Assembly (NCBI RefSeq): GCF_011045215.1
Contig: NZ_CP049201.1
Direction: 5' to 3' (one strand)
From: Escherichia coli
Lineage (GTDB): Bacteria; Pseudomonadota; Gammaproteobacteria; Enterobacterales; Enterobacteriaceae
DNA: 64,000 bases
Part shown: positions 1 to 62,593 of the stretch, piece after piece
How the letters are laid out: the number at the start of each line of letters is the position of its first letter
How positions within the stretch are numbered: the first letter of the stretch is position 1
Notes under the pieces: generated by a model
The model's input: only the letters and a program-made list of their open reading frames with translations
Told to the model about the DNA's origin: nothing
The model's database searches: none
Position numbers and translations under genes: made by a program

Positions 1-1
1 T

Positions 2-478
2 TACAATTTACTCCTGTTGATTGATGTCGGTGAATCTGGTCAACACAAACAATCTTTTGCCACCATAGCCACACAAGTTTTTGAAAAAGGCTATGATTTC
101 AGGCACGGTATTGCACTGGCTATTCCTGTGCTCATTACTGAATTATTAACCCGGTTAATGTGGACATGTAAACAATGGTTATATCATAAAAAGCCCTTGA
201 CTGAGTGTGTACCTGTAGAAAATGATCCGGAGTTAAGAAGAATGTTACTGATTGCTCATGGAACGCTCTGTATGATTGATGCTGGTGATGCAGCATTTAG
301 ATCCGGTGGTAATTTGATGACGTTTCTGCTGAGAACTAATATGGTCGGCTGGGTTCGGTTTGGTATGCTTGCGTTAAAAGAAGTTCATGGGTTATACAAC
401 ACAGGTCATATTGATGTTGATTCGGTTGATAAATATCTGGATACTGAATTAGAAAGATTATCATCTCATCTATACTAA
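2..478 (+). CDS. Hypothetical protein, C-terminal fragment; reading frame is open to the left window edge, so the 5' end is missing
   Basis: ORF track 17..478 begins at a TTG, but the same frame has no stop back to position 2. No recognisable motif. Lies inside the selC island. Confidence 0.4.
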   Translation, partial: YNLLLLIDVGESGQHKQSFATIATQVFEKGYDFRHGIALAIPVLITELLTRLMWTCKQWLYHKKPLTECVPVENDPELRRMLLIAHGTLCMIDAGDAAFRSGGNLMTFLLRTNMVGWVRFGMLALKEVHGLYNTGHIDVDSVDKYLDTELERLSSHLY

Positions 479-703
479 TCCCTCTGACAGGCCATTCTGC
501 TATAAAGACATGGGATGAATGATAATGATTGTCGGCGCTTTTTTCACGAAGGAAAGGGTAGTGACAGCCAGGTTTACAATGTACCGCTGCATATGTGGCG
601 GTTGACTATATCGGCTTCACGGTTTTCAGGATAAAGCATTAATCAGTAGTCCTGTATTAAGTATATCTGCCTCAGGCGAACATACTGTATTTTATAAATT
701 TTT

Positions 704-2308: not shown

Positions 2309-2364
2309 TTCGTTAAAGTAATTTACGACTCTATTCTTTTTTAAAGGAAACTTTCAGAAAATAA

Positions 2365-2385
2365 CCCCAGGGCGATAACCTGGGG
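2365..2385. terminator. Hairpin between the convergent PEtN-transferase and TPR-like genes; possible bidirectional terminator
   Basis: ccccagggcgataacctgggg: a 6-bp GC stem (cccagg/cctggg) flanked by A/T-rich sequence. Confidence 0.35.
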
Positions 2386-2454
2386 AAGGGGGTTTAGTGT
2401 GTTATTACTGGTGGATAAATTATTACTTGTTTGAAAAATACACTAATGCAATAT

Positions 2455-3498: not shown

Positions 3499-3850
3499 TT
3501 TCTGAGCCTGTAAAACGGATTGGACACAATCTGAAAAGCATAAAAGTCGTGATGTTGTGTATCAAGTCTTGTTTTTGTCCGGGATGAATGTTGTTTACAA
3601 TATCATCGACAGTGTTTTTATATGAGAATGAAAATTTATCTTTATCTGCATTCCAATGTATTGTGAATTGTCAGCTGAAACAGCATATTAATCGATTTTT
3701 TGATAATGGTGCTGAAATAACGACAGGATGATGATTGAAACTACTGGTATCAAAATTGTTAGCGGTCCATAATGGTGTGATGTTTTGAGATTGTTTATAG
3801 ATGCAATATTAAATATTTTGTCAAAAAACAAAAAATACCTAAAAATAAAG

Positions 3851-3888
3851 CATAAAAACAAAATTCCTCCGGACCAGGAGGCCGGAGG
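3851..3888 (-). terminator. Rho-independent terminator downstream of the integrase gene
   Basis: Stem cctccgg...ccggagg (3866-3888) followed on the minus strand by a T-rich run. Confidence 0.4.
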
Positions 3889-3928
3889 AGAATTTGTGGA
3901 TTGAGAGAAAATATCAGGACAAGTGCTC

Positions 3929-5119
3929 TTAACCCTGACTCTCTTGCTTAGAAAGCGAATCAATATAATCTGCGTACCACTGCATCATTTCACGGCGACC
4001 ATCGAGATACTGGGCATGATTATAGGTACCCCTGATGGCGTTTTTATCCACATGAGCTAACTGCATTTCAATCCAGGCGGAATTAAAGCCCTGTTCGTGC
4101 AGAATGGTACTCATGGTGTGTCTGAAACCGTGCCCTGTGAGTCTTCCCTTATATCCCAGTAATTCAATGACTTGGTTAATGCTTTCCTTACTAATTGGCT
4201 TGCGAGGATCGTTCCTACCGATAAAGACCAGAGGATGATGTTTTGTGATGGGTTCAAGTTGCTTAAATAGGGCAATGACCTGCTCAGAGAGCGGCACAAT
4301 ATGAGGTCGCTTCATCTTCATTACTTTTGCCGGAATCTCCCATAATTTTGTCTCAAAATCGATATCCTCCCAGCGTGCGAAACGTAATTCTTGTGTTCGT
4401 ACACCAGTTAACATAATGATCTGAGTAGCTGTCTTAGTGATGATACTTCCGGTATAACCCGCCAGATCGTTGAGGAAGTGGGGAAGTTCATTAGCAGTAA
4501 GAAAGGGAAAATGTACTTTTTTCGGTGTAGCTAAAGCACAGGCAAGATCGGGAGCAGGGTTGTAGTCTGCCCGACCAGTAACAATTGCATAGCGGAACAC
4601 TTCACCACAGCGCTGGCGGACTTTGCGCATTTTCTCCAGAGCTCCACGTTTTTCCATTTTACGCAGTGCTTCCAGTAACTCCATTGGTTTGATTTCGGCG
4701 ATAGGGCGTTTGCCAATGTAGGGAAAAATGTCTTTTTCAAAGGTATCAATGATTTCATCACGATAGCGTAATGACCACCGATCGGCTTTTGACTGATGCC
4801 ATTCGCGAGCAATGGCCTCGAACGTATTTTTCAAACTCATTTGTTGCGCGATTTTTTCTTCTTTTTTTGCCACCCCTGGATCGCCTCCAGCAGCGAGGAT
4901 TTTTCTGGCTTCGCTGCGTTTTTCACGAGCGTCGGCTAGCGTTACATCGGGGTATACGCCAATAGAAAGCATCTTTTCTTTACCAGCAAAGCGGTACTTC
5001 ATACGCCAGTATTTAGAACCATTAGTGTTAATCAGTAGATACATACCGCCGCCATCAGCAAGTTTATAGGGCTTTTCTTTTGGTTTTGCGGTTTTCACTT
5101 TAATATCGGTTAATGCCAT
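3929..5119 (-). CDS. int: P4-family tyrosine integrase (site-specific recombinase)
   Basis: 396 aa. C-terminal catalytic region with the conserved R...HxxR...Y residues (LTGHGFRHTMSTIL, IRGTYNHAQY). Same orientation as, and directly downstream of, the tRNA 3' end, the canonical layout for tRNA-targeting islands. Confidence 0.9.
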   Translation of the reverse strand: MALTDIKVKTAKPKEKPYKLADGGGMYLLINTNGSKYWRMKYRFAGKEKMLSIGVYPDVTLADAREKRSEARKILAAGGDPGVAKKEEKIAQQMSLKNTFEAIAREWHQSKADRWSLRYRDEIIDTFEKDIFPYIGKRPIAEIKPMELLEALRKMEKRGALEKMRKVRQRCGEVFRYAIVTGRADYNPAPDLACALATPKKVHFPFLTANELPHFLNDLAGYTGSIITKTATQIIMLTGVRTQELRFARWEDIDFETKLWEIPAKVMKMKRPHIVPLSEQVIALFKQLEPITKHHPLVFIGRNDPRKPISKESINQVIELLGYKGRLTGHGFRHTMSTILHEQGFNSAWIEMQLAHVDKNAIRGTYNHAQYLDGRREMMQWYADYIDSLSKQESQG

Positions 5120-5417
5120 GACATCCTCCGGCTTTTAATGAATTCATGTTCCTGAGGGGGACTTCTGCCAGTAATTAACCTGATACCCCCAATGCACCCC
5201 TTGTATAACAAAGATGTTGTTGAAAGCCGTTGTTATATATCATATTTTACCAATTATGGGGGTGCTGATATTTCAATAGGAAATAATACCCCCTAAAGTA
5301 CCCCCAAAAGCAACTTGATACGGGGTGAAGTCGGTTGACTTCTGGATACAAAGGAATCCTGATATACAAGGGATTAGAAGGGGTGGTTGACATCGGGGGA
5401 GTTCAGAAGATGTTAAT

Positions 5418-5512
5418 TGGCGGAAGATCACAGGAGTCGAACCTGCCCGGGACCGCTGGCGGCCCCAACTGGATTTGAAGTCCAGCCGCCTCACCGGAGA
5501 CGACGATCTTCC
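5418..5512 (-). tRNA. selC: tRNA-Sec (selenocysteine tRNA)
   Basis: 95-nt reverse-complement match to the E. coli selC sequence (GGAAGATCGTCGTCTCCGGTGAGGCGGCTGGACTTCAAATCCAGTTGGGGCCGCCAGCGGTCCCGGGCAGGTTCGACTCCTGTGATCTTCCGCCA) as I remember it; the 3' CCA is at 5418-5420. Confidence 0.95.
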
Positions 5513-5804
5513 GCGCCTCGATTGCTACATGGAGGCGGGGCGCATTATAGCTACTTCCTTGAGTTTCTACATCCCCCAGATCAGTTTTTTCCGCCTAATA
5601 CACGCAGCGTATTATCACGAAAGCATTATAGTTCATATAAAACCCATATTTTACAATGATATATGAGCGGAATTAACGCTACCACGATCACATAAAACAA
5701 GAATCATAAATTAATAACCAGATATCGGAATATTCGCTCTCACAGGGATGGTTTACAAAATGCGTTATCGGTCTCAGCACCCCTATAGCATCAAGGAAAA
5801 GCAG

Positions 5805-7187
5805 ATGAAGAGTGAAGTGTTGTCCGTTAAAGAGAAAATTGGTTATGGCATGGGAGACGCCGCCAGCCACATTATTTTCGATAACGTAATGTTATATATG
5901 ATGTTCTTTTATACCGATATTTTTGGCATTCCTGCCGGATTTGTCGGAACCATGTTTTTGGTCGCTCGTGCACTGGATGCGATTTCCGATCCTTGCATGG
6001 GGTTGTTGGCCGATCGAACGCGCTCTCGCTGGGGTAAATTTCGTCCGTGGGTACTGTTTGGCGCACTGCCATTCGGGATCGTCTGTGTACTGGCCTATAG
6101 CACGCCAGATCTCAGTATGAACGGCAAAATGATCTATGCAGCAATTACTTACACCCTACTTACCTTACTTTATACCGTCGTCAATATCCCTTACTGCGCA
6201 TTGGGTGGTGTAATCACCAATGAACCGACTCAGCGTATCTCGCTGCAATCCTGGCGTTTTGTGCTGGCGACCGCGGGAGGCATGCTCTCTACTGTTCTGA
6301 TGATGCCACTGGTTAATTTAATTGGTGGTGATAATAAACCACTCGGTTTCCAGGGCGGTATCGCGGTCCTTTCCGTGGTGGCATTCATGATGCTGGCATT
6401 CTGTTTTTTCACCACTAAAGAACGCGTTGAAGCACCACCTACAACGACGTCTATGCGGGAAGATTTACGTGATATCTGGCAAAACGACCAGTGGCGGATT
6501 GTCGGTTTACTAACCATTTTCAATATCCTGGCGGTGTGCGTACGCGGTGGAGCGATGATGTATTACGTCACATGGATTTTGGGTACGCCGGAAGTGTTTG
6601 TCGCTTTTCTCACCACTTATTGCGTGGGTAACCTGATTGGTTCCGCACTGGCAAAACCGCTGACCGACTGGAAATGTAAAGTCACTATCTTCTGGTGGAC
6701 GAACGCCCTGCTGGCAGTGATTAGCCTCGCGATGTTCTTTGTTCCCATGCAGGCCAGCATCACTATGTTTGTCTTCATCTTCGTGATTGGTGTGTTGCAT
6801 CAACTGGTGACACCTATCCAGTGGGTAATGATGTCCGATACCGTCGACTACGGCGAGTGGTGCAATGGTAAACGCCTGACCGGGATCAGTTTTGCTGGCA
6901 CGCTGTTTGTGCTCAAACTGGGGTTGGCCTTCGGCGGCGCTCTTATCGGCTGGATGCTGGCTTATGGCGGATATGATGCGGCAGAAAAAGCGCAGAACAG
7001 CGCCACGATTAGCATCATTATTGCGCTATTCACGATTGTTCCGGCGATCTGTTATTTGCTGAGCGCGATTATCGCTAAACGCTACTACTCACTCACGACG
7101 CACAATCTGAAAACCGTTATGGAACAGCTGGCTCAGGGTAAACGCCGTTGCCAGCAACAATTCACCTCTCAAGAAGTGCAGAACTAA
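5805..7187 (+). CDS. yicJ: GPH-family sugar:cation symporter (putative xyloside transporter)
   Basis: 460 aa from MKSEVLSVKEKIGYGMGD; 12-TM MFS/GPH profile; directly upstream of yicI. Confidence 0.85.
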   Translation: MKSEVLSVKEKIGYGMGDAASHIIFDNVMLYMMFFYTDIFGIPAGFVGTMFLVARALDAISDPCMGLLADRTRSRWGKFRPWVLFGALPFGIVCVLAYSTPDLSMNGKMIYAAITYTLLTLLYTVVNIPYCALGGVITNEPTQRISLQSWRFVLATAGGMLSTVLMMPLVNLIGGDNKPLGFQGGIAVLSVVAFMMLAFCFFTTKERVEAPPTTTSMREDLRDIWQNDQWRIVGLLTIFNILAVCVRGGAMMYYVTWILGTPEVFVAFLTTYCVGNLIGSALAKPLTDWKCKVTIFWWTNALLAVISLAMFFVPMQASITMFVFIFVIGVLHQLVTPIQWVMMSDTVDYGEWCNGKRLTGISFAGTLFVLKLGLAFGGALIGWMLAYGGYDAAEKAQNSATISIIIALFTIVPAICYLLSAIIAKRYYSLTTHNLKTVMEQLAQGKRRCQQQFTSQEVQN

Positions 7188-7196
7188 GGAACGGCA

Positions 7197-9515
7197 ATGA
7201 AAATTAGCGATGGAAACTGGTTGATTCAACCTGGCCTCAATTTGATTCACCCGCTTCAGGTGTTCGAGGTTGAACAGCAGGGTAATGAAATGGTGGTCTA
7301 TGCTGCCCCCCGTGATGTGCGTGAACGTACCTGGCAGCTTGACACGCCTTTATTTACGCTGCGCTTTTTCTCCCCACAGGAAGGTATTGTCGGTGTGCGG
7401 ATTGAGCATTTTCAGGGGGCGCTGAATAACGGTCCTCATTATCCGCTCAATATTTTGCAGGACGTGAAGGTCACAATCGAAAACACAGAACGTTATGCTG
7501 AGTTTAAAAGTGGCAACTTAAGCGCGCGTGTCAGCAAAGGTGAGTTCTGGTCACTGGATTTTCTGCGCAACGGCGAACGTATTACCGGTAGTCAGGTGAA
7601 AAATAATGGCTACGTGCAGGACACGAATAATCAACGAAATTATATGTTTGAGCGGCTTGATCTTGGCGTTGGCGAAACAGTTTATGGTCTGGGAGAGCGC
7701 TTTACTGCCCTGGTGCGCAATGGTCAGACGGTAGAAACCTGGAACCGGGACGGCGGCACAAGTACTGAACAGGCGTATAAAAATATCCCGTTCTACATGA
7801 CTAACCGTGGTTATGGGGTACTGGTCAATCATCCCCAATGCGTCTCTTTTGAAGTGGGATCGGAGAAAGTCTCCAAAGTGCAGTTCAGCGTTGAGAGTGA
7901 ATATCTCGAATACTTTGTTATCGACGGCCCGACGCCGAAAGCGGTACTTGATCGTTATACCCGCTTTACTGGTCGTCCGGCGCTGCCGCCCGCGTGGTCC
8001 TTCGGTCTGTGGCTAACCACTTCATTTACCACCAACTACGACGAAGCGACGGTAAATAGCTTTATTGATGGTATGGCGGAACGCAATCTGCCGCTGCATG
8101 TTTTCCACTTTGACTGTTTCTGGATGAAAGCCTTCCAGTGGTGCGATTTTGAGTGGGACCCGCTGACTTTCCCGGACCCGGAAGGGATGATCCGCCGCCT
8201 GAAAGCGAAAGGGCTGAAAATCTGCGTCTGGATTAACCCCTATATTGGGCAAAAATCCCCCGTCTTTAAAGAGTTACAAGAGAAAGGTTATTTACTCAAA
8301 CGCCCGGACGGTTCGCTGTGGCAGTGGGATAAATGGCAGCCAGGTCTGGCGATTTATGACTTTACCAATCCGGATGCCTGCAAATGGTACGCCGACAAAC
8401 TGAAAGGTCTGGTCGCGATGGGCGTTGATTGCTTTAAGACCGACTTTGGCGAACGTATCCCAACCGATGTTCAGTGGTTTGACGGTTCCGATCCGCAGAA
8501 AATGCATAACCATTATGCGTACATCTACAACGAACTGGTGTGGAACGTGCTCAAGGACACCGTTGGTGAGGAAGAAGCTGTCTTGTTTGCCCGCTCGGCC
8601 TCCGTCGGTGCGCAGAAATTCCCGGTACACTGGGGTGGCGACTGTTACGCTAACTACGAATCAATGGCGGAAAGCCTGCGCGGTGGTTTGTCTATTGGCC
8701 TTTCAGGTTTTGGCTTCTGGAGCCACGATATCGGCGGCTTTGAGAATACCGCGCCGGCGCACGTTTACAAACGCTGGTGCGCGTTTGGTTTGCTCTCCAG
8801 CCATAGTCGTTTACATGGCAGCAAATCTTATCGTGTGCCGTGGGCCTACGATGATGAGTCCTGTGATGTGGTGCGCTTCTTCACGCAACTGAAATGCCGC
8901 ATGATGCCGTATCTGTATCGTGAAGCTGCGCGTGCGAACGCGCGGGGTACGCCGATGATGCGGGCCATGATGATGGAGTTCCCGGACGATCCGGCTTGTG
9001 ATTACCTTGACCGTCAATACATGCTAGGCGACAACGTGATGGTTGCTCCGGTGTTCACTGAGGAGGGCGAGGTGCAGTTCTACTTGCCGGAAGGTCGCTG
9101 GACACACCTGTGGCACAACGATGAGCTCGACGGTAGTCGCTGGCATAAACAGCAGCACGGCTTCCTGAGTCTGCCCGTTTATGTGCGTGATAACACCCTA
9201 CTGGCGCTGGGCAACAACGATCAACGTCCCGATTACGCGTGGCACGAAGGTACGGCATTCCAGCTCTTTAAACTGCAAGACGGGCATGAAGCCGTCTGTG
9301 AAGTGCCCGCTGCTGACGGTTCGGTGATCTTTACTTTAAAAGCAGCACGTACTGGCAACACGATTACTGTGACTGGTGCGGGCGAGGCGAAGAACTGGAC
9401 GCTGTGCTTGCGCAATGTTGTGAAAGTAAATGGTCTGCAAGGCGGTTCGCAGGCTGAAAGTGAGCAGGGACTGGTGGTGACTCCTCAAGGGAATGCGCTG
9501 ACAATTACGGTGTAA
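7197..9515 (+). CDS. yicI: Alpha-xylosidase, glycoside hydrolase family 31
   Basis: 772 aa with GH31 signature regions ([18 protein letters not shown]); length and synteny match YicI. Confidence 0.9.
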
Positions 9516-14274: not shown

Positions 14275-14449
14275 TCGATGAAGCGGCGGTAGAAGTGCCG
14301 CCGCAACAAAGACAAATGCCTGATACGCTTCGCTTATCAAGGCTGCGCATTGATTCACAATTTATTGAATTTATAAGTTTCTGTAGGACGAAGCACATCC
14401 GGCAGGAAGGTAGGGTAACCTGAAATGGCGGTCTTCTCACCGCCGCCTT

Positions 14450-20478: not shown

Positions 20479-22867
<2,389 letters not shown>

Positions 22868-29082: not shown

Positions 29083-30280
29083 AACGGGTCACGATCTCGT
29101 CGAGTAATAATTGGCCAAGGAGCTCTTTTCGCTCAAGCGGTAAGACTTTATCTCCGTCCTGCCAGAAAAGGTGTAATGCGTTGTTGTCGCTGTTAAATCC
29201 TTGAGTTGGCTGGGAAACATCGTTCGCGCAGATCAGATCAAGGTTTTTACGGATACGTTTTTGCCGGGCGTATTCTTCCACATTATTTGTTTCGGCGGCA
29301 AATCCAACGACGTAGGGTCGATGGTCTTTTAGTGCGGCAACGCCTGCGACGATATCGGGGTTTTTAACCATTTTTATTGTTAATTCATCACCCTGCGTGG
29401 CCTGCTTTTTGATTTTTTCTGGGGCCACGGTAGCTGCGCGATAATCCGCCACGGCGGCGCAGCCGATAAAAATATTTTGCTGCTGTACAGAAGCATTCAC
29501 GGCGGCTTCCATTTCCAGCGCAGTCATCACATCAACACGTTTAACAAACGGTGGCGTCGGTAGTGATACCGGACCTGATATCAGCGTGACGTTCGCGCCA
29601 CGACGGGCGGCGGCGGCGGCGATAGCAAAACCCATCTTGCCGGAGCTGTGATTAGAGATATAACGCACCGGATCGAGCGGTTCACGCGTCGGGCCGGCGG
29701 TAATCATAATGTTCAGATGTTTCAGGTCGTTGACGGGCGAAAAATGCGCTACCGCCATATCCACAATGGTTAACGGATCGAGCATTCGCCCAGGGCCGAT
29801 ATCACCACAAGCCTGACTGCCACTGTCTGGCCCCCAGATGAGCAAACCACGGGAGGAAAGCACCTCTAAATTATGCTGCGTGGCAGCGGCACGGTACATC
29901 TGCTGGTTCATGGCGGGGAGCACGGCTACAGGCGCAGGTGTAGCCAGACAAATCGTCGATACCAGGTCATTCGCCATTCCGGCAGCAACACGGGCAATCA
30001 AATCTGCCGTGGCAGGGGCGAGAATCACTAAATCAGCCCATTTACCCAGCTCAATATGGCCCATAGCGGCTTCGGCTGCCGGGTCCAGCAGACTGTCGGA
30101 AACGGGATAACCAGAAACCGCCTGCAAGCTAAGTGGGGTGATAAAGGCTTTTGCCGCTTCGGTCATGGCTACGCGGACGTCGGCCCCGCGATCGCGCAAA
30201 CGACGCACCAGTTCAGGGGTTTTATAGGCAGCAATACCGCCGCTAACGCCGAGAACGATTTTTTTACCGGCCAGGCTCAT
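29060..30280 (-). CDS. coaBC: Bifunctional phosphopantothenoylcysteine decarboxylase / phosphopantothenate-cysteine ligase
   Basis: 406 aa from [20 protein letters not shown]; the track ORF has a 24-codon upstream extension. Confidence 0.95.
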
Positions 30281-32706: not shown

Positions 32707-34471
<1,765 letters not shown>

Positions 34472-34822
34472 AGTAAATAGCTGACTTATGGATGTGCTGG
34501 GGATTCTATGTATTTAGCTGTGGCTTTACCATTACTTTTCCCGTTTTTGACTTAAATAGCAATTTACCCGCCAATTCTTGCTGAACATCTATACTTTTTT
34601 TGTATTTTTATGCGATTCATTGATTTCTGCTGTACGTGCAGGAAGGAATCGCAGAGCAACAGTGAAAGAATATGGTTGCTAATGATTATATTTGATTGAT
34701 TTCTTTATTGAAAATCAACAATGTGCTTAAAAATCATTCGGGTCGGATTGCCGCGAAAGAAGTGATACACTAGCGCGTCAATATCAGTGCGGTATCAGTA
34801 TTCAGGTAGCTGTTGAGCCTGG

Positions 34823-34834
34823 GGCGGTAGCGTG
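34823..34834 (+). promoter_or_regulatory. ops element (RfaH-dependent antitermination signal) in the JUMPstart region upstream of waaQ
   Basis: GGCGGTAGCGTG in the 5' leader of the waaQ operon. Confidence 0.7.
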
Positions 34835-34883
34835 CTTTTTCTGCTTCACCTTAATCGGATAATCTCAACAAAAAGAGTTACTT

Positions 34884-35942
34884 GTGGATAAGCCATTTCG
34901 AAGAATTTTGCTCATTAAGATGCGTTTTCATGGGGATATGTTATTAACTACTCCCGTCATTAGTTCGCTGAAAAAAAATTACCCTGACGCAAAAATCGAT
35001 GTGCTGCTTTATCAGGACACCATCCCGATCCTGTCTGAAAATCCAGAGATTAACGCGCTCTACGGCATAAAAAATAAAAAAGCAAAAGCCTCAGAAAAAA
35101 TTGCCAACTTTTTTCATCTCATCAAGGTATTACGTGCCAATAAGTATGACCTTATCGTCAATCTTACCGATCAATGGATGGTTGCTATACTGGTTCGCTT
35201 ATTAAATGCCCGTGTGAAAATTTCCCAGGATTATCATCATCGGCAGTCTGCTTTTTGGCGTAAAAGTTTCACCCATTTGGTGCCGTTGCAGGGTGGAAAT
35301 GTGGTGGAAAGTAACTTATCCGTGCTGACACCATTGGGACTTGATTCGTTGGTGAAGCAGACAACCATGAGTTACCCGCCTGCAAGCTGGAAACGTATGC
35401 GTCGCGAACTTGATCACGCTGGTGTTGGACAAAATTATGTGGTTATCCAACCTACGGCGCGGCAAATCTTCAAATGCTGGGACAACGCCAAGTTTTCCGC
35501 TGTGATTGATGCCTTACATGCTCGTGGTTATGAAGTCGTTCTGACGTCCGGCCCAGATAAAGACGATCTGGCCTGCGTCAATGAAATTGCGCAGGGATGC
35601 CAGACGCCACCAGTAACGGCGCTGGCTGGAAAGGTGACCTTCCCGGAACTTGGTGCGTTAATCGATCATGCGCAGCTGTTTATTGGCGTTGATTCCGCAC
35701 CGGCGCATATTGCCGCTGCAGTTAATACGCCGCTGATATCGCTGTTTGGTGCGACAGACCATATTTTCTGGCGTCCCTGGTCAAATAACATGATTCAATT
35801 CTGGGCGGGAGATTACCGGGAAATGCCAACGCGCGATCAGCGTGACCGAAATGAGATGTATCTTTCGGTTATTCCGGCGGCAGATGTCTTTGCTGCTGTC
35901 GATAAATTACTGCCCTCCTCCACGACAGGTACGTCGTTATGA
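34884..35942 (+). CDS. waaQ: LPS heptosyltransferase III
   Basis: GT9 heptosyltransferase; first gene of the long waa operon. The start is uncertain (GTG at 34884 or a downstream codon). Confidence 0.85.
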   Translation: MDKPFRRILLIKMRFHGDMLLTTPVISSLKKNYPDAKIDVLLYQDTIPILSENPEINALYGIKNKKAKASEKIANFFHLIKVLRANKYDLIVNLTDQWMVAILVRLLNARVKISQDYHHRQSAFWRKSFTHLVPLQGGNVVESNLSVLTPLGLDSLVKQTTMSYPPASWKRMRRELDHAGVGQNYVVIQPTARQIFKCWDNAKFSAVIDALHARGYEVVLTSGPDKDDLACVNEIAQGCQTPPVTALAGKVTFPELGALIDHAQLFIGVDSAPAHIAAAVNTPLISLFGATDHIFWRPWSNNMIQFWAGDYREMPTRDQRDRNEMYLSVIPAADVFAAVDKLLPSSTTGTSL

Positions 35943-37063
35943 TCGTTGCTTTTTGTTTATATAAATATTTTCCCTTTGGCGGTTTGCAGCGCGATTTTAT
36001 GCGTATTGCTCAGACAGTCGCCGCCCGAGGTCATCATGTTCGGGTTTATACCCAGTCGTGGGAAGGCGAATGCCCTGATGTATTTGAACTGATCAAAGTG
36101 CCGGTTAAATCGCATACCAATCACGGGCGCAATGCGGAGTATTTTGCCTGGGTGCAAAAACATTTACGCGAACATCCCGTCGATAAAGTCGTTGGATTCA
36201 ACAAAATGCCGGGGCTGGACGTTTATTATGCCGCTGATGTTTGTTATGCCGAGAAAGTAGCGCAGGAAAAAGGCTTTTTCTATCGCCTGACGTCACGTTA
36301 TCGCCATTATGCCGCCTTTGAGCGGGCAACCTTCGAACAGGGCAAGCCGACACAGCTGCTAATGCTGACAGATAAGCAAATCGCCGATTTCCAGAAACAT
36401 TATCAGACTGAAGCGGAGCGTTTTCATATTCTGCCACCGGGGATTTATCCTGATCGTAAATATAGCCAGCAGCCAGCTAATAGCCGTGAAATCTTCCGTA
36501 AGAAGAATGGAATAACCGAACAACAATATTTATTGTTGCAGGTCGGTTCAGACTTCACGCGTAAAGGTGTCGATCGTTCCATTGAAGCACTTGCTTCGTT
36601 ACCGGATTCGCTGCGCCACAACACATTGCTATATGTTGTTGGGCAGGATAAACCGCGAAAATTTGAGGCGCTGGCAGAAAAACGCGGCGTGCGCAGTAAT
36701 GTTCACTTCTTCTCGGGGCGCAACGATGTCTCGGAATTAATGGCGGCGGCGGATTTATTACTGCATCCTGCCTACCAGGAAGCGGCGGGAATTGTGCTGC
36801 TGGAAGCGATTACTGCAGGATTACCGGTACTAACAACAGCCGTTTGTGGCTATGCGCATTATATTGTCGAGGCCAATTGCGGCGAGGCTATTGTTGAGCC
36901 ATTCCGCCAGGAAACATTGAATGAGATTTTACGCAAAGCGTTAACGCAATCTTCATTGCGCCAGGCCTGGTCGGAAAATGCGCGACATTATGCTGATACA
37001 CAAGATTTATACAGTCTGCCAGAGAAAGCGGCGGATATCATAACGGGTGGTCTGGATGGTTGA
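35939..37063 (+). CDS. waaG: LPS core glucosyltransferase I (GT4)
   Basis: 374 aa; overlaps the waaQ stop by 4 nt (ATGA). Confidence 0.9.
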
Positions 37064-37853
37064 ACTTAAAGAGCCGTTTGCCACGTTATGGCGCGGTAAA
37101 GATCCTTTTGAGGAAGTTAAAACCTTGCAGGGTGAGGTATTTCGTGAACTGGAAACTCGCCGTACTCTGCGCTTTGAAATGGCGGGCAAAAGCTATTTTC
37201 TCAAATGGCATCGCGGCACGACCCTGAAAGAGATAATCAAAAATTTACTCTCATTGCGGATGCCAGTATTAGGCGCAGACCGCGAATGGAATGCGATTCA
37301 TCGACTGCGGGATGTCGGCGTTGATACTATGTATGGGGTGGCATTTGGCGAAAAAGGCATGAATCCGCTGACCAGAACTTCATTTATTATTACCGAAGAT
37401 CTGACACCAACCATAAGTCTGGAAGATTACTGTGCTGACTGGGCGACTAACCCTCCAGATGTTCGCGTAAAGCGTATGCTTATTAAGCGTGTCGCGACGA
37501 TGGTGCGCGATATGCATGCTGCGGGCATTAACCACCGTGACTGTTATATCTGTCATTTCCTGCTGCACTTGCCTTTTTCCGGTAAGGAAGAGGAGTTAAA
37601 AATTTCGGTAATTGACCTGCACCGGGCGCAGCTTCGCACGCGCGTTCCACGTCGTTGGCGCGATAAAGATCTTATTGGGCTTTATTTTTCTTCGATGAAT
37701 ATCGGCCTGACTCAGCGGGATATCTGGCGGTTTATGAAAGTGTATTTTGCCGCCCCGCTTAAAGACATTCTCAAGCAGGAACAAGGACTGCTGTCGCAAG
37801 CAGAAGCAAAAGCCACAAAAATCAGGGAAAGAACGATTCGAAAATCGTTGTAA
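37056..37853 (+). CDS. waaP: LPS core heptose(I) kinase
   Basis: 265 aa from [14 protein letters not shown]; kinase-like region [17 protein letters not shown]. Confidence 0.85.
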
Positions 37854-37895
37854 CCCGTAACTTATTTTTGCCAAAATTTTGGATACAGAATAAAT

Positions 37896-38903
37896 ATGTC
37901 TCAACTCAATGATAGTGACATCATCCTTTTTGAGTATAATTTTCATTATCAAAATATAAGATCTAAAAATACTCTTGATATAGCATTTGGTATTGACAGA
38001 AATTTTCTTTTTGGATGTGGTGTAGCCATCGCATCTATTCTATTAAACAATAGAGAAATCTCTTGTGAATTTCATGTTTTCACAGATTATATCAGTGATA
38101 AAGACAAGTTATATTTTTCCGATTTAGCAAAACAATATAATTCAAGAATTAATATTTATGTTATCAATTGTGATAAGCTGAAGTCATTACCAAGCACGAA
38201 AAACTGGACTTACGCTACATATTTTCGATTTATAATTGCAGACTATTTCTATAATAAACATGAAAAAATACTATATCTTGATGCAGATATTGCTTGCAAG
38301 GGTAGTATTAAAGAACTCTTAGATTATCAATTCTCTACTAATGAAATTGCCGCAGTTGTAGCTGAAAGAGATGTTGAATGGTGGCAGAATCGAGCCTCGG
38401 TATTAACTACACCACAATTAGCTTCTGGATATTTCAATGCTGGTTTTTTACTGATAAATATTGATGAGTGGAATCTTAATAACATTTCGTCAAAAGCTAT
38501 TGAAATGTTGCGTGATCCAGATTGGGTAAGTAAAATCACCCACCTTGATCAAGATGTACTGAATGTATTATTGAATGGTAAAGTGAAGTTTATTTCTGGG
38601 AAATATAATACCCGATATAGTATTAACTATGAATTAAAAGACAAAGTTGATAATCCAGTCAATGATGACACTGTGTTTATACACTATGTGGGACCTACAA
38701 AACCCTGGCATGAATGGGCTGACTATCCGGTGTCACGTAGTTTTTTGATCGCCAAAGCATCTTCTCCGTGGTGTAAAGAAGATTTACTTAAACCTGTAAA
38801 TAGCAATCAGTATCGGTATTGTGCAAAACATAAATTTAAACAAAAGCATTATATGGCGGGCATTTTTAATTATTTAAAGTATTATAAAGAAAAATGCTTT
38901 TAA
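37896..38903 (+). CDS. waaI: GT8-family LPS outer-core glycosyltransferase (position matches waaI of the R3 core type)
   Basis: 335 aa; GT8 hallmarks (LYLDADI DxD motif, HYxGxxKPW). Symbol assigned from gene order only. AT-rich. Confidence 0.5.
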   Translation: MSQLNDSDIILFEYNFHYQNIRSKNTLDIAFGIDRNFLFGCGVAIASILLNNREISCEFHVFTDYISDKDKLYFSDLAKQYNSRINIYVINCDKLKSLPSTKNWTYATYFRFIIADYFYNKHEKILYLDADIACKGSIKELLDYQFSTNEIAAVVAERDVEWWQNRASVLTTPQLASGYFNAGFLLINIDEWNLNNISSKAIEMLRDPDWVSKITHLDQDVLNVLLNGKVKFISGKYNTRYSINYELKDKVDNPVNDDTVFIHYVGPTKPWHEWADYPVSRSFLIAKASSPWCKEDLLKPVNSNQYRYCAKHKFKQKHYMAGIFNYLKYYKEKCF

Positions 38904-38928
38904 AGATTTAAGGTTAAAATAATTCAAT

Positions 38929-39636
38929 ATGATATATAATAAAACGATAAATGGGTTGAAAGTTTTCATAAAAGATAATGATCCCTTTTATGAGCAAGTT
39001 CTGAATGACTTTTTAACTTGCAGGGTTAAAACATTAAAAGTTTTTCGTTCTATTGATGATACTAAAGTTATTCTTATTGACACTGCTCGTGGACCTCTTG
39101 TACTTAAAGTTTATGCGCCAAAGCATAAAATGATCGAACGTTTCTTAAAATCTTGCATAAAAAAAGATTATTATGAAAATTTAATTTATCAAACCGATCG
39201 GGTACGTGGTGAAGGCATTCAATCAATTAATGACTATTTTTTGCTTGCTGAACGTAAAACATTAAATTTCGCGCATTATTATATTATGCTCATTGAGTAT
39301 ATTGAAGGTGTCGGGTTAAATGAGTATTTGGAAATTTCTGAAGAACTGAAGGATCAATTATCAGAATCGATAAAAGAGTTGCATCAGCATGGAATGGTGT
39401 CTGGCGATCCTCATAAAGGAAATTTTATAGTATCCGAAAAAGGTTTAAGACTAATTGACCTTTCAGGTAAAAAAACAACCGCAGTTTTAAAAGCAAAAGA
39501 TCGCATTGATCTTGAACGGCACTATAATATAAAAAATGAATTGAAAGACTTTGGCTATACATATCTTATATTCAAAAAGAAAATTAAAAAAGCAATCAGG
39601 GATGTAAAAGTCAAACTAGGTTTGAAGAGCAAATAA
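38929..39636 (+). CDS. waaY: LPS core heptose(II) kinase
   Basis: 235 aa, WaaP/WaaY-like small kinase, placed between the two GT8 genes. AT-rich. Confidence 0.6.
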   Translation: MIYNKTINGLKVFIKDNDPFYEQVLNDFLTCRVKTLKVFRSIDDTKVILIDTARGPLVLKVYAPKHKMIERFLKSCIKKDYYENLIYQTDRVRGEGIQSINDYFLLAERKTLNFAHYYIMLIEYIEGVGLNEYLEISEELKDQLSESIKELHQHGMVSGDPHKGNFIVSEKGLRLIDLSGKKTTAVLKAKDRIDLERHYNIKNELKDFGYTYLIFKKKIKKAIRDVKVKLGLKSK

Positions 39637-39660
39637 TGATTATGATGAAGGGTAATTAAA

Positions 39661-40674
39661 TTGGATTTTAAACATCTTACTCAATTTAAAGATATAATTG
39701 AACTGGACAAGCGCCCCGTTAAACTTGATGAACGGGAAACGTTTAATGTCTCATGGGGTATTGATGAGAACTACCAGGTTGGGGCTGCGATTTCAATTGC
39801 TTCAATTCTTGAAAATAATAAACAAAACAAATTTACCTTTCACATAATCGCTGATTACTTAGACAAAGATTATATTGAATTATTATCACAATTAGCAACG
39901 AAGTATCAAACAGTAATTAAATTATATCATATTGATTCTGAGCCATTGAAGACGCTACCTCAATCAAATATCTGGCCAGTATCTATTTATTATCGTTTGC
40001 TTTCATTTGACTATTTTTCTGCGCGATTGGATTCATTATTATATCTTGATGCTGATATCGTCTGTAAGGGTTCATTGAACGAGTTAATAGCATTAGAGTT
40101 TAAAGATGAATATGGGGCTGTGGTAATTGATGTAGATGCTATGCAAAGTAAAAGCGCTGAGCGTTTAGGTAATGAGGATTTTAACGGTAGCTATTTTAAC
40201 TCTGGTGTAATGTATATTAATTTACGGGAATGGTTAAAACAAAGACTAACGGAGAAATTCTTTGATCTATTATCAGATGAGTCAATTATCAAAAAATTAA
40301 AATATCCGGATCAAGATATTTTAAACTTAATGTTTCTACATCATGCTAAAATATTACCGAGAAAATATAACTGTATTTATACTATAAAGTCAGAATTTGA
40401 AGAAAAAAATAGTGAATATTACACCCGGTTTATTAATGATGAAACTGTCTTCATACATTATACTGGTGTAACTAAGCCATGGCATGATTGGGCGAACTAC
40501 GCATCTGCAGATTATTTTCGTAATATTTATAATATATCACCATGGAGAAATATACCTTATAAAAAAGCTGTTAAAAAACATGAGTACAAAGAAAAATATA
40601 AACACTTGCTTTACCAGAAAAAATTTCTCGATGGTTTTTTTACAGCAATTAAATATAATTTTATGAAAGGTTAA
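39661..40674 (+). CDS. waaJ: GT8-family LPS outer-core glycosyltransferase (position matches waaJ of the R3 type)
   Basis: 337 aa; GT8 hallmarks (LYLDADI, HYTGVTKPW). Appears to use a TTG start at 39661 because in-frame stops lie immediately upstream. Symbol from gene order only. Confidence 0.5.
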   Translation: MDFKHLTQFKDIIELDKRPVKLDERETFNVSWGIDENYQVGAAISIASILENNKQNKFTFHIIADYLDKDYIELLSQLATKYQTVIKLYHIDSEPLKTLPQSNIWPVSIYYRLLSFDYFSARLDSLLYLDADIVCKGSLNELIALEFKDEYGAVVIDVDAMQSKSAERLGNEDFNGSYFNSGVMYINLREWLKQRLTEKFFDLLSDESIIKKLKYPDQDILNLMFLHHAKILPRKYNCIYTIKSEFEEKNSEYYTRFINDETVFIHYTGVTKPWHDWANYASADYFRNIYNISPWRNIPYKKAVKKHEYKEKYKHLLYQKKFLDGFFTAIKYNFMKG

Positions 40675-40682
40675 CATTCGAG

Positions 40683-41825
40683 ATGGTTGATAAAATAATA
40701 TTTACAGTTACTCCTATTTTTTCAATTCCTCCTCGCGGAGCGGCCGCTGTTGAAACGTGGATGTATCAGGTCGCTCAGCGTACCAATTTCCCAAATCGTA
40801 TTGTTTGTATCAAGAATCCAGGATACTCAAATTACACCTTTGTTAATGATAATTGTAGTATTCATAGGGTTGGATTCAGTCGCATATATAAGCGGTTATT
40901 TCAAAAATGGACAAGACTTGATCCTCTTCCATATTCACAGAGAATATTGAATATTGCACATGATTTTCCTATAACGAAAGAAAGTGTTATTGTAGTTCAT
41001 AATAGTATGAAGCTATACACTCAAATTCGTAAGCGAGCTCCTCAGGCAAGAGTGGTTATACATATGCATAATGCATTTGAACCAAAATTGCTTGAGCAAA
41101 ATGTTAAAATGATAGTGCCTAGTTTATACTTGAAAAAGTATTACCAATCTTATTTAGCAAATGCAGATATTGAGATTGTACCAAATGGAATTGATTTAGA
41201 AACCTATCAATCTACTTTTCAGCCGATCACTAGAAGCGAACTTAATATCTCCCCTGAAGAGAAAATTATTTTTTATGCTGGGCGTATCGTCCCTGACAAA
41301 GGCATATTGCTGTTGATGCAATCATTCGAAAAATTGGCCGCTGCTCACAAAAATTTAAAATTAGTTGTGATTGGTGATTATACAGAAATGAGTAAAAGTG
41401 ACAAAGGTGCATATCAACGCAATGTCAGGGAAATTGCAAAACGTTTGAAGGATCGTTGCATTATGTTAGGAAGCATACCGCCTGAAAAGATGCATTGTTA
41501 TTACCCACTGGCAGATTTAGTCGTCATTCCTTCCCAGTTCCAGGAACCATTTTGCATGGTGGCAATTGAAGCTATGGGGGCTGGTAAGCCTGTTTTAGTG
41601 AGTACGCGTGGGGGGATGACGGAATTTGTCAAAGAAAATACTACGGGATTCCATTTAAAAGAACCTATGACTGCAGACTCCATAAGCAGCGATATTTTAA
41701 AAACGTTAGCGAATCCTGAATTAACAGCAGTTGCAAAGCAAGGTCAGGATTTTGTGTTTGATCACTACAGTTGGGATGGCGTAACTCAAAGATTCGAAGA
41801 GGTTATTCATAATTGGTTTGAATAA
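40683..41825 (+). CDS. waaD: GT4-family glycosyltransferase, last gene of the waaQ operon (position matches waaD of the R3 type)
   Basis: 380 aa; GT4 EX7E-type region (IPSQFQEPFCMVAIEAMGAGKPVLVSTRGGMTEFV). Followed by a hairpin with T-run (aaaaaggccgcattatgcagccttttttatttttt). Confidence 0.45.
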   Translation: MVDKIIFTVTPIFSIPPRGAAAVETWMYQVAQRTNFPNRIVCIKNPGYSNYTFVNDNCSIHRVGFSRIYKRLFQKWTRLDPLPYSQRILNIAHDFPITKESVIVVHNSMKLYTQIRKRAPQARVVIHMHNAFEPKLLEQNVKMIVPSLYLKKYYQSYLANADIEIVPNGIDLETYQSTFQPITRSELNISPEEKIIFYAGRIVPDKGILLLMQSFEKLAAAHKNLKLVVIGDYTEMSKSDKGAYQRNVREIAKRLKDRCIMLGSIPPEKMHCYYPLADLVVIPSQFQEPFCMVAIEAMGAGKPVLVSTRGGMTEFVKENTTGFHLKEPMTADSISSDILKTLANPELTAVAKQGQDFVFDHYSWDGVTQRFEEVIHNWFE

Positions 41826-41860
41826 ATAAAAAGGCCGCATTATGCAGCCTTTTTTATTTT

Positions 41861-43069
41861 TTACTTGTTTTTCATCGCTAATAATAAGCCGGCGTAAACG
41901 CCTAATAAATTTGGTTCAATTTGTTCTACGTTTCCACGGATAACAAAATAACCTATAAAAGATAGTAAGATTATATAATATGCATTATATGGTGAGCGGT
42001 ATATATTCTGGACGCCATTTTTTATACACTCTTTCAATATTGCACAGTATAGCATCATAAGACTTACCAGCCCTAATAAACCAGTGCCAAACCAGATGAA
42101 TAGCGCAAAATTATGTGGCCCTATTGATTGTCTAAAGGTCCATTCTGGATAATCAACGACACGTTTATTATAGACATCTTTATATGCAAAGTTACCGTAA
42201 CCATAACCAATAACAGGATTTTCTAATATTAGATCGAGTGCGCTGCCTTGAGTACCATTTGCATAGCGATAAGAACTATTAGTTTGTTGAAGTTTATACG
42301 TTAGCTTTGCGGTCATCTCCTTATGTGTGAAAATAACCGACAATGCAATGATGGAAACCATTACTCCTACTAATAGTAACTTCCATTGTTTAAACATCAG
42401 AATCCATATTAATCCAATGACTAACACGGAAAGCCAGGCCCCTCTGGATAAAGTTCCTAATATCAGAAAAATAAAAATAAAGCTTAGAACCACAAAAGAA
42501 ATGCGGTATTTTGCTGATTTAATAAGCCAGAGATTTAACAATGCAGGGAATAAAAAGACCATCGAGTCAGAAATGCTACGGTGTCTATAATCTGCGAATG
42601 GCATTATCCCTTGTTGATAGTCCTTATAATAGGCAATCAATTCAGAAAAACAGCGTAAGCTCAACGCACTAATAAATGAGAAGAAAACGATTTTTTCGAT
42701 ATCTTCTCTTTTTTCGTCTCTCAATATGACCGGTATTGCTATTGTGCATAGTAAAGTATTCTCAATGATAGCTTTGAAAATTTCCTTCATGCTAGCACCT
42801 GCATCTGGAGATTGAAGAAGTGACAGCAATGCAGCAATAGTTAATATGGCAACACTACCAAAAAGAAATGTTTTAAATAGTGATAGATAGTGTTTTGGCC
42901 GTTTGCAGAGATAGACGATTGTCGTTATTGTCATAAGAATAACAATAAGATGTTTATACCTTGTAATCCCACCCAAAAAATAGGTGGTAATAAATAAGAA
43001 TACGAGAGCTCTGTTCCAGTACGCTATCCAGTTTTTTTTCTCGAGAGAGAAAAATAATGTTGAGGTCAT
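41861..43069 (-). CDS. waaL: O-antigen ligase
   Basis: 402 aa, very hydrophobic polytopic protein; position immediately downstream of waaC in the hldD-waaF-waaC-waaL operon. AT-rich. Confidence 0.7.
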   Translation of the reverse strand: MTSTLFFSLEKKNWIAYWNRALVFLFITTYFLGGITRYKHLIVILMTITTIVYLCKRPKHYLSLFKTFLFGSVAILTIAALLSLLQSPDAGASMKEIFKAIIENTLLCTIAIPVILRDEKREDIEKIVFFSFISALSLRCFSELIAYYKDYQQGIMPFADYRHRSISDSMVFLFPALLNLWLIKSAKYRISFVVLSFIFIFLILGTLSRGAWLSVLVIGLIWILMFKQWKLLLVGVMVSIIALSVIFTHKEMTAKLTYKLQQTNSSYRYANGTQGSALDLILENPVIGYGYGNFAYKDVYNKRVVDYPEWTFRQSIGPHNFALFIWFGTGLLGLVSLMMLYCAILKECIKNGVQNIYRSPYNAYYIILLSFIGYFVIRGNVEQIEPNLLGVYAGLLLAMKNK

Positions 43070-44058
43070 CTTATCTCCGATGTCAACTTATTGATTATTA
43101 TTTCAAGATTTAAATTTTGAAAAACGGTTTGAGCTGGCAAATCTGCAAGAGACATACTTGTAGAACGACACTCTACTTGATTCTTCCCATACCCGCCAAT
43201 TAATCCCGGATCGGTTGGTCCATAAACCGTGATATTGGGTCTATCCAGTGCCGCCGTTAAATGGCTTAACCCCGTATCCACCGACACTACAAATTTAGCC
43301 CCGGCCAGCACGCGGGCAACGCCTTCCAGACTCATCTTCGGTAATACTTCAACATAAGCAAATCCTTCCGCCAGTCGTTTCGCCCGTTCTTCCTCATGCG
43401 GCGCGCCCCACGGAAGTTTAATCCGTATTCCTGAATCAGCCAGTAAACCAATCAATTCTCGCCAGTGTTCTTCCGGCCAGTGTTTATCATCACGGGTCGT
43501 CGCATGAAGAAATACGGCATATTCGCCAGCATCTGTAGGCAGATTCGTCAGGAAATGCTGTGCAATAGCATAATCGCCCTGGGTTTGCGGTTTGCTATAG
43601 CCCAGACTTTTGGCAAACAGTTCGCGGGTGCGTTCTACGGCGTGCTGCTGTTTTGCAATATGATGCTTACGATTGTAAAACAGACTGGCTAAAGGTTCGC
43701 GAGCGGTTTTCCAGTCCATGCCATGCTTTACGCCATGCGCCAGACGCGTCACCAGCGCCGCGCTTTTTACCAGCCCCTGAGCGTCGATAACTGCGTCATA
43801 GTTCTCTGCTTGTAGCGCTTCACGAAACGCTTTGCGTTCCGCTTTTATGGGGGCCGAGAACCAGGCTTTACGCCAGCGACGTATTGCCACAGGAATAACT
43901 CGCTCAACGGCAGCGTGCCAGGAAGGAATCTGTGCGAACCCTTCTTCCACCACCCAGTCAAACTTAATCCCTGGGATTGCCTGCTGGGCATCAGTGAGTG
44001 CGGGCAACGTATGGAGAACATCGCCCATCGACGATGTTTTAACGATCAAAACCCGCAT
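43066..44058 (-). CDS. waaC: LPS heptosyltransferase I
   Basis: 330 aa from MRVLIVKTSSMGDVLHTLPALTDAQQAIPGIKFDWVVEEGFAQIP. Confidence 0.9.
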   Translation of the reverse strand: MRVLIVKTSSMGDVLHTLPALTDAQQAIPGIKFDWVVEEGFAQIPSWHAAVERVIPVAIRRWRKAWFSAPIKAERKAFREALQAENYDAVIDAQGLVKSAALVTRLAHGVKHGMDWKTAREPLASLFYNRKHHIAKQQHAVERTRELFAKSLGYSKPQTQGDYAIAQHFLTNLPTDAGEYAVFLHATTRDDKHWPEEHWRELIGLLADSGIRIKLPWGAPHEEERAKRLAEGFAYVEVLPKMSLEGVARVLAGAKFVVSVDTGLSHLTAALDRPNITVYGPTDPGLIGGYGKNQVECRSTSMSLADLPAQTVFQNLNLEIIINKLTSEIR

Positions 44059-60938: not shown

Positions 60939-62593
60939 TAAGGAATCATCCACGTTAAGACATAAGCCTGAAGCGTGGTGATCACGCCCACCATACAGGT
61001 GAAGATCAGGCTGTGTTTGACAGTAAAGCGGAACAAATCAGACTCTTTGCCCACCAGGCCTACCGCCGCACAGGCGATAGCGATAGATTGCGGGGAGATC
61101 ATCTTACCGGTGACGCCACCGGTGGTATTGGCGGCAACCAGCAACAGATCAGAGACGCCAATTTGTTGTGCTGCGGTGGCTTGCAGCGCGGCGAACAGGG
61201 CGTTAGATGAGGTATCCGACCCGGTCAGGAATACCCCCAGCCAGCCGAGGAACGGCGAGAAGAAGGTGAATGCATGACCGGTGTGCGCCAGTGCCAGCGC
61301 CAGTGTTGATGACAGTCCGGAATAGTTCGAAATAAAGGCGAATGCCAGCACCATACCGATGGAGTAGATGGGCAGAGCCAGTTCTTTCAGCGTGCTGCCG
61401 AAGGTGCTGATAGCGTCAGACGGTTTCATCTTCAGCCAGACAACCGAGAGCAGCGCAGCAAACAGAATGGCGGTACCGGTGGCAGAGAACCAGTCGAACT
61501 TAAACACGGCGGCATAGGCTGTAGCCTCGCTGACCACTGGCGGCATACGGGCAACCAGTTTATCGAGGTACGGCACCGGAATATTGATCACCCATTCATA
61601 CAGCGCACCACCCGAAGCGAACAGGGCTTTAAACGGCGGGATGCTCCACAGTGTAACGGTAGCGGTCAGGAACAGGAACGGTGTCCAGGCACGTAACACC
61701 TGACCCGCAGTGTAACCGGTGTGGGCCAGCGTCATATCAACCTGTGACGCCCCCAAATCACCAAAACGGAATACGCGCACTGGCTGCCAGCGTTTGAGGA
61801 ACAGCGTCAGGCAGAGCAGTGATACCAGTGAAGAGATAATGTCCGGCAGCTCCGGCCCAATGAAGTTAGAGCTAAGGTACTGAGCGATGGCAAACGAGCC
61901 GCCCGCAACCACGACCGCAGGCCAGGTTTCTTTGATACCGCGCCAGCCGTCCATAATCGCCATGATCCAGAACAGCACGATAATGGTCATAAACGGTAGC
62001 TGCCGCCCCACCATCTGACCAATCTCAAAGCTGTCGATACCTGTTACCTGTCCGGCAACCAGGATTGGAATGCCCATCGCGCCAAATGCCACTGGCGCGG
62101 TGTTAACAATCAGGCACAGCCCAGCGGCGTACAGCGGTTTAAAGCCCAGGCCGACCAGCAATGCGGCGGTAATTGCTACCGGTGCGCCAAAGCCTGCGGC
62201 TCCTTCAAGGAAAGCGCCGAAACAGAAACCGACGATCAGCATTTGCAGACGCTGGTCAGGGGTTATCGAAAGAATAGACGAGCGAATGATGTCAAACTGC
62301 CCGGTTTTCACCGAGATCTTATAGACGAACACTGCTGCAATAATGATCCACGCGATGGGCCACAACCCGTAGAAGAAGCCATAAACCACCGAGGCCAGCG
62401 CGTTAGCGACCGGCATTTTATAGAACAGCAAAGCCACGGCAAGGGCGATTGCCACTGTCCATGAGGCGGCGATGTATCCTTTCAGTTTGAGCTTAATCAG
62501 CGCAAAGAAGAAAAACAGGATGGGAAGCGATGCTATCAGGCTGGAAAGCCAGATATTCCCGGCGGGACCGTAGTTTTGTTGCCAGAGATTCAT
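60938..62593 (-). CDS. lldP: L-lactate permease
   Basis: 551 aa from [30 protein letters not shown]; stop overlaps the lldR start by 1 nt (TAATG). Confidence 0.9.

Follow-up and report, generated by a model that had tools for sequence, protein, structure and literature searches.

The best-described relative of the locus considered here is the leader of the waaQ (rfaQ) operon of Escherichia coli K-12. Its divergent kdtA/rfaQ promoters go back to Clementz 1992, as cited in PMC4141488, the JUMPstart element to Hobbs and Reeves 1994, as cited in PMC2864571, and the K-12 waaQ leader with rirA to Klein et al. 2016, as cited in PMC6358824. The waaQ operon requires RfaH, and the RfaH-interacting RNA RirA has been described (PMC6358824, PMC8745692, PMC5736990). 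RfaH reads the operon polarity suppressor, ops, as non-template DNA in a paused transcription complex, and the substitutions G4C, G5A, A7T, G8C and T11G abolish ops function (PMC5995543). An in vivo pause, rfaQ56U, has been reported in K-12 (PMC11077087). Bound RfaH excludes NusG, suppresses Rho, counteracts silencing by H-NS and recruits the ribosome via S10 (PMC5995543, PMC9765446, PMC6358824). ChIP has placed RfaH on the rfa operon in CFT073 and in K-12, and the operon is coated with H-NS (PMC9765446). Overexpression of RirA mimics an rfaH deletion (PMC5736990, PMC6358824, PMC8745692), and RirA is reported, for K-12 only, to bind RfaH via its ops sequence and to damp RfaH activity (PMC5736990, PMC8745692).

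Other RfaH-dependent operons (rfb/wzx, kps, hly, tra; Rfam RF01707) share with waaQ the 39-nt architecture with its GGTAGC direct repeat, 5-bp stem and terminal ops, as well as the location in the 5' leader of a surface-polysaccharide operon that is long, AT-rich and horizontally exchanged (PMC2864571, PMC9765446). The waaQ leader differs from them in being annotated as the sRNA RirA as well, and in belonging to a chromosomal core-genome locus that is paired with the essential, divergently oriented waaA. A more remote parallel, by analogy only, is the Q protein of phage lambda with qut and tR'. There, too, a factor loads onto a promoter-proximal paused polymerase via non-template DNA and travels along with it, and a short leader RNA arises from the same start. 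The proteins, however, are unrelated, RfaH being a NusG paralogue, and the ops pause is of the backtrack-type consensus kind rather than sigma-dependent. Furthermore, tR' is a terminator in lambda, whereas the hairpin of the waaQ leader is only predicted and only terminator-like.

The window analysed here is a 64-kb (64,000 nucleotides) stretch of E. coli DNA, and the segment of interest, 34472-34883, very probably represents a canonical promoter-leader of an LPS core operon with RfaH loading at ops. For this assignment, promoter, JUMPstart/ops and operon were derived from the sequence and its comparison, while pausing, RfaH loading and RirA action are taken from published work on K-12, on CFT073 and in vitro. 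Its features are the following.

33194-34471, minus strand: waaA (kdtA), Kdo transferase, a 425-aa open reading frame (NF004385, 903.8 bits against a cutoff of 590)
34472-34561, minus strand: waaA-proximal conserved block, 97-100% identical to K-12, with mostly 70-100% conserved columns in 28 other species
34562-34726, no strand assigned: variable spacer, 40-70% identical to K-12-type alleles and of low cross-genus conservation outside a small island
34763-34771, plus strand: extended -10 of the waaQ/rirA promoter, TGaTACACT, with T, G, n, T, A, C, A, C, T conserved at 0.8-1.0
34778-34849, plus strand: homologue of the sRNA rirA (RfaH-interacting RNA), by base-for-base alignment to MG1655 b4760
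34786-34840, plus strand: predicted imperfect hairpin (34786-34836, about 51 nt) followed by a U-run (34836-34840), from the minimum free energy (MFE) fold of the 73-nt RNA
34796-34834, plus strand: JUMPstart, 39 nt, Rfam RF01707, with a 5-bp stem pairing 34803-34807 with 34817-34821
34823-34834, plus strand: ops (operon polarity suppressor), GGCGGTAGCGTG, an exact match with the pause base T11 at 34833
34873-34886, plus strand: waaQ initiation region, with a weak Shine-Dalgarno-like AAGAG at 34873-34877 and a GTG start at 34884-34886
34884-35942, plus strand: waaQ/rfaQ, heptosyltransferase RfaQ/WaaQ (NF007742, 712 bits)
34884-41825, plus strand: waaQ-waaG-waaP-waaI(O)-waaY-waaJ-waaD operon, seven genes, 6.9 kb, R3 core type, from open reading frames, family matches and low GC

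The original prediction described the segment as a divergent waaA/waaQ control region, and it is exactly the 412-bp spacer between the waaA (minus strand) and waaQ (plus strand) reading frames. The same gene boundaries appear in the RefSeq annotation of a genome with a 100% identical spacer. waaA is the first gene of a divergent waaA-coaD unit and is annotated as waaA in the matching RefSeq genomes. On the other side, waaQ is followed by waaG, waaP, a 3-alpha-galactosyltransferase gene (waaI/O), waaY and the glycosyltransferase genes waaJ and waaD, and beyond 41825 the genes waaL-waaC-waaF-hldD lie on the opposite strand. When window positions 33194-43883 were compared with the O157:H7 waa locus by blastn, a single alignment of 10,690 bp at 98.9% identity was obtained, with identical gene sizes, and we therefore assign the operon to the R3 core type. 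The gene order waaQ-G-P-I-Y-J-D and the opposite-strand waaL joined to waaC-waaF-hldD match the O157:H7 annotation, while the outer core gave no alignment with an R1/R4-like strain. K-12, in contrast, carries waaS-B-O-J-Y-Z-U where the window has the R3-type waaI-Y-J-D. Thus, the outer-core genes are indeed of a non-K-12 kind, as had been proposed, and the K-12 allele matches the window at only 60-80% from about 34562 onwards. The R3 operon's orientation and boundaries are confirmed as well, with ops on the plus strand, the same strand as waaQ. GC content in the outer-core part (37800-41200) is 0.26-0.34, and DNA of this kind is subject to silencing by H-NS and Rho.

Elsewhere in the window, an island (704-5512) adjoins selC. 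It comprises tRNA-Sec (5422-5512, minus strand), a P4-type integrase reading frame (3929-5119, minus strand), a TPR protein (2455-3498, minus strand) and an intact 534-aa phosphoethanolamine-transferase-like reading frame (704-2308, plus strand), whose matches to EptA, CptA and MCR models lie well below the cutoffs. Window positions 1-9000 are covered to at least 80% in only 71 of 5,426 complete E. coli genomes, and in one of these 71 the transferase gene is a pseudogene.

The ops sequence GGCGGTAGCGTG was found on the plus strand at precisely the coordinates claimed for it, i.e., 34823-34834. Scored against the base requirements published in PMC5995543, the site contains all consensus bases: the contacts G4, G5, T6 and A7, the C3:G8 pair and the pause-inducing T11-G12. 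It lies on the sense (non-template) strand of waaQ, in the leader between the promoter and the first gene. Taken alone, the 12-mer is only mildly improbable, because at least one match to the GGCGGTAGnnTG consensus occurred in 8 of 100 shuffles of the window; the window itself holds a single match where 0.09 are expected. The surrounding element is far more distinctive. RF01707 matches 34796-34834 over its full length (model positions 1-38 of 38) with 55.2 bits, the gathering score being 35 (E=3.5e-11 in a 3.5-kb search and E=6.4e-10 for the whole window), and ops forms the last 12 nt, the 3' end, of this match. A lack of any match to the JUMPstart/ops consensus had been named as the outcome that would speak against the assignment; the match is present, including the full 12-nt ops consensus. 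JUMPstart lies directly upstream of the polysaccharide cluster waaQGPIYJD. The description of the leader as AT-rich holds for the spacer as a whole, with a GC content of 0.383 compared with 0.494 for the window, but not for ops itself, which resides in a GC-rich island (JUMPstart 0.59). The whole leader has a GC content of 0.434 and the 49 nt after ops one of 0.327.

Four further GGCGGTAG octamers besides that of ops occur in the window, at 14285-14292 and 22655-22662 on the plus strand and at 29749-29756 and 61060-61067 on the minus strand. The total of five compares with 1.22 expected, and five were reached by one of 100 shuffles. All four lie inside long reading frames, two in sense and two in antisense orientation, and none has TG at positions 11-12, which is common to all validated ops targets (PMC5995543). 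They are probably not RfaH sites.

As to conservation within the species, the spacer is present in 5,424 of 5,426 complete E. coli genomes, in line with the earlier description of an expected, conserved feature. Of these, 4,180 have it at 99% identity or more and 936 at 60-80%, the latter representing the K-12-type allele; the window carries the majority, non-K-12 allele. The closest comparison is O157:H7, with a spacer identity of 99.8% (one mismatch) and a colinear stretch from waaA through waaC; the differences are scattered point differences only, none of them in promoter, JUMPstart or ops. A K-12-like genome matches the window at about 99% across waaA and as far as 90 bp into the spacer, and at 60-84% from there through waaQ, waaG and waaP. 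The identity boundary is sharp and lies at about 34561/34562. Because identity falls so abruptly at this point, the edge of the core-type recombination cassette lies inside the intergenic region, and waaQGP, the 'conserved' inner-core genes, are also part of the divergent allele. The 90 bp next to waaA (34472-34561) presumably hold the waaA promoter and 5' UTR; a candidate -10-like hexamer, TAGAAT, lies on the minus strand at 34509-34504. Inside the diverged spacer, an island at 34592-34621 (TTTTTTTGTATTTTTATGCGATTCATTGA) shows 93% identity to K-12 and a moderate degree of conservation among genera; it may be a regulator site or part of the waaA upstream promoter. Binding of MarA to the regulatory region of kdtA has been seen in vitro; it had no observed effect on regulation (PMC12052159).

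Against this diverged background, the block 34727-34840 retains 93-100% identity with the K-12 allele, compared with 40-80% for the adjacent spacer and waaQ and about 70% for the post-ops leader. Since it is near-identical inside a diverged allele, we regard promoter, JUMPstart and ops as an island of purifying selection. In the alignment with the K-12 waaQ leader, which had been proposed as a check, 34796-34840 is 100% identical and the stretch from the -10 to ops is free of indels. All in all, K-12 and the window share the divergent waaA, the extended -10, the start position, JUMPstart, ops and a RirA-equivalent segment of about 92% identity, so that every functional part is the same; they differ in the spacer 34562-34726 (40-70%), in one fewer T in the U-tract of the window and in the post-ops leader (about 70%). 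In strain E2, an IS4-family element, ISVsa5/IS10 (locus 2696-3904), has inserted into the waaA-waaQ spacer and stops just short of the equivalent of 34728, leaving the downstream promoter-JUMPstart-ops block intact. This natural deletion test suggests that the block from about -50 onward may be enough for waaQ expression. As a by-product, this footprint locates about 115 bp of spacer under selection, the recombination boundary and the IS-tolerant part.

Conservation beyond E. coli was assessed in one genome per species, requiring ops and then conserved waaQ codons 55-85 nt later. The scan yielded 42 Enterobacterales species of about 17 genera, among them Escherichia, Salmonella, Citrobacter, Kluyvera, Cedecea, Pluralibacter, Kosakonia, Shimwellia, Buttiauxella and Leminorella. 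The 12-mer ahead of waaQ is invariant in 42 of 42 species; the search pattern did not constrain positions 9-10, yet they are CG in every case. This points to purifying selection on the 12-mer across species. The start of waaA could be located at 28 of these loci; there the gene is divergent and lies 262-353 nt upstream of ops. Column by column, the extended -10, the block 34729-34751 and JUMPstart with ops are conserved and are followed by a variable stretch. Conservation returns at 34870-34886, where AAAAGAG and GTG reach 0.8-1.0 across genera, and codon-like periodicity begins at 34884.

Two deviating arrangements were seen. In Leminorella grimontii, a near-perfect second ops-like motif, GGCGGTAGCGTT, is located 33 nt upstream of ops and replaces the 5' half of JUMPstart, and there is no waaA within 6.3 kb upstream. 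In the Citrobacter youngae group, about 3 kb rather than about 350 bp separate waaA from ops, the distance from ops to the ATG is shortened to 58-59 nt and the post-ops U-tract is missing; here, the divergent arrangement has been broken by an insertion.

Transcription of waaQ probably starts at 34778, a position on which three independent lines agree: the last base of the conserved extended -10 lies 7 nt upstream of it, MG1655 rirA aligns with its 5' end on exactly this base, and ops T34833 then becomes nucleotide 56, as in the published in vivo pause (PMC11077087). Conservation of the extended -10 was measured in 43 and in 29 species-level sequences; no -35 could be recognised in the conserved block 34729-34751 farther upstream. 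Ops is thereby placed 45 nt downstream of the start, and its end 49 nt before the waaQ GTG. Two promoters proposed by a scan, TTGAAA-N18-AATCAT (34708-34737, plus strand) and TTTTCA-N18-TATAAT (34714-34685, minus strand), are no more than shuffled sequences yield and are not conserved across genera. Both were dropped in favour of the extended -10 at 34763-34771, because only the latter is conserved across genera. A sigma32-like reading of the K-12 spacer (TTGAAA...CCCCAT) was likewise rejected, as the spacing is wrong and the motif is missing in the window allele.

The MG1655 rirA gene (b4760, 3808166-3808238, 73 nt) aligns end to end with 34778-34849; the two are about 92% identical, and the U-tract of the window copy is one T shorter. 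The segment has the same 5' end as the waaQ mRNA and includes ops, and homology and synteny thus mark the leader as a RirA homologue, a feature absent from the original prediction.

The waaQ start codon is annotated differently among strains. PGAP places it at GTG 34884 (352 aa) in genomes with an identical spacer, while MG1655 uses an ATG equivalent to 34920 (344 aa). GTG 34884 is the likely start, because it is conserved across genera, codon-like periodicity sets in there and tblastn alignments run from residue 1. Reviews state that the operon 'lacks a ribosome-binding site'. Since a weak but conserved AAGAG is present 6 nt before the GTG, the need for RfaH-mediated ribosome recruitment may be only partial. 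The R3 operon is long and AT-rich and its initiation region is weak, which makes it the kind of target expected for RfaH.

On this basis, the following course of events is proposed. Transcription would start at 34778 from the extended -10 promoter and then cross the 39-nt JUMPstart, whose last 12 nt are ops. RNA polymerase would pause at T11 of ops (34833, transcript U56). In the paused complex, the non-template GGCGGTAG would form a small hairpin (C3:G8) with G5 and T6 exposed, to which autoinhibited RfaH would bind. The C-terminal domain of RfaH would thereby be released and refold from a helical hairpin to a beta-barrel. RfaH would then ride with the polymerase, exclude NusG, suppress pausing, Rho-dependent termination and H-NS-mediated silencing, and bring the ribosome via S10 to the poorly initiating waaQ start with its weak AAGAG and GTG. 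The outcome would be full-length expression of the 6.9-kb AT-rich R3 operon (34884-41825), while the first approximately 72 nt of the same transcript (34778-34849) would constitute RirA and damp RfaH. RfaH dependence in this strain is something we infer from the K-12 and CFT073 literature (PMC9765446, PMC6358824); rfaH lies outside the window and its presence in this genome is assumed.

The structure of the leader RNA raises a further point. The 5-bp stem of the Rfam model pairs in all 180 cells across 37 distinct leaders, with A-U changed to G-U in 12 sequences and to G-C in two; its covariation is statistically weak, the observed score being reached by 68 of 500 shuffles. The whole-leader fold (34778-34886) does not exceed shuffled sequences in stability (z=0.13) and so gives no thermodynamic sign of a strongly structured leader; any role of the JUMPstart stem at the RNA level is thus putative. 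In the predicted hairpin of the 73-nt RNA, the conserved AGUGCG..UAUC pairs with the ops RNA, which would make ops its 3' arm. Together with the following U-tract, the predicted hairpin resembles a terminator. It is conceivable, if doubtful, that hairpin and U-tract act as a conditional intrinsic terminator, i.e., an attenuator, right after the RfaH loading site. Polymerase without RfaH would then terminate near 34845-34850 and release RirA, while RfaH-modified polymerase would read through, a course of events we likewise hold to be rather unlikely. Such a device would add to the ops mechanism without replacing it, and would resemble lambda Q with the tR' terminator and the 6S transcript. What speaks for it is that five T residues follow the predicted hairpin 34786-34836, that the same architecture is present in the MFE structure of 41 of 42 distinct leaders, with a U-rich tail in most, and that 91% of the cells of the extended hairpin pair as compared with 30-51% when partners are slid. 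The changes seen are one-sided and strengthen pairs, U-G to C-G in nine sequences and G-U to A-U in seven. The annotated 3' end of RirA, moreover, lies 13-14 nt beyond the hairpin, and the reviews covered here give no account of how this end is formed. On the other hand, 13-14 nt is farther than the usual 7-9 nt, and the hairpin, with an MFE of -19.3 kcal/mol and z=-0.46, is not unusually stable compared with shuffles. A terminator scan of the window sequence called none. Covariation in the extended hairpin is weak (reached by 13 of 500 shuffles), and since ops itself holds the 3' arm constant, the pairing may have been conserved incidentally. The U-tract, in addition, is missing in several genera (Citrobacter youngae group, Cedecea, Kosakonia, Buttiauxella), and the question may already be settled in the primary RirA work. 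Should the attenuator nevertheless exist, which we consider improbable, it would sense RfaH, and the RirA released from it would titrate RfaH in a self-contained feedback loop setting LPS-core output.

The identity of about 92% between 34778-34849 and annotated rirA could also be taken to mean that the conserved block primarily encodes RirA as a trans-acting, RfaH-titrating decoy sRNA and that cis antitermination of waaQ is secondary. This we regard as very unlikely: the same 12-mer and JUMPstart precede the rfb, kps, hly and tra operons, for which no sRNA has been described (PMC9765446, PMC2864571), the form in which RfaH recognises ops is the non-template DNA of the paused complex (PMC5995543), overexpression underlies the RirA phenotypes, and the sRNA and cis roles do not exclude each other. 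That the 12-mer is a functionless chance occurrence, as the shuffle counts for GGCGGTAGnnTG and the four intragenic octamers might suggest, deserves practically no credence and is already refuted by the comparative sequence data, given the full JUMPstart match at window scale, the invariant motif with position and strand kept ahead of waaQ in 42 species, its location in an island of identity inside a diverged allele and the lack of TG at positions 11-12 of the other octamers.

The canonical promoter-leader with RfaH loading at ops is thus the preferred reading of the segment, and no feature of the sequence speaks against it. The ops/JUMPstart element found here is already known, real, conserved and ordinary, and its significance beyond annotation is slight. 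What the analysis provides is a placement to the base of the transcription start, the rirA homologue, JUMPstart, ops and the likely waaQ GTG, and its forward-looking point is the possible terminator-like origin of RirA. For E. coli and its relatives, conservation indicates that RfaH control has probably been retained across core-type alleles and across the Enterobacteriaceae.
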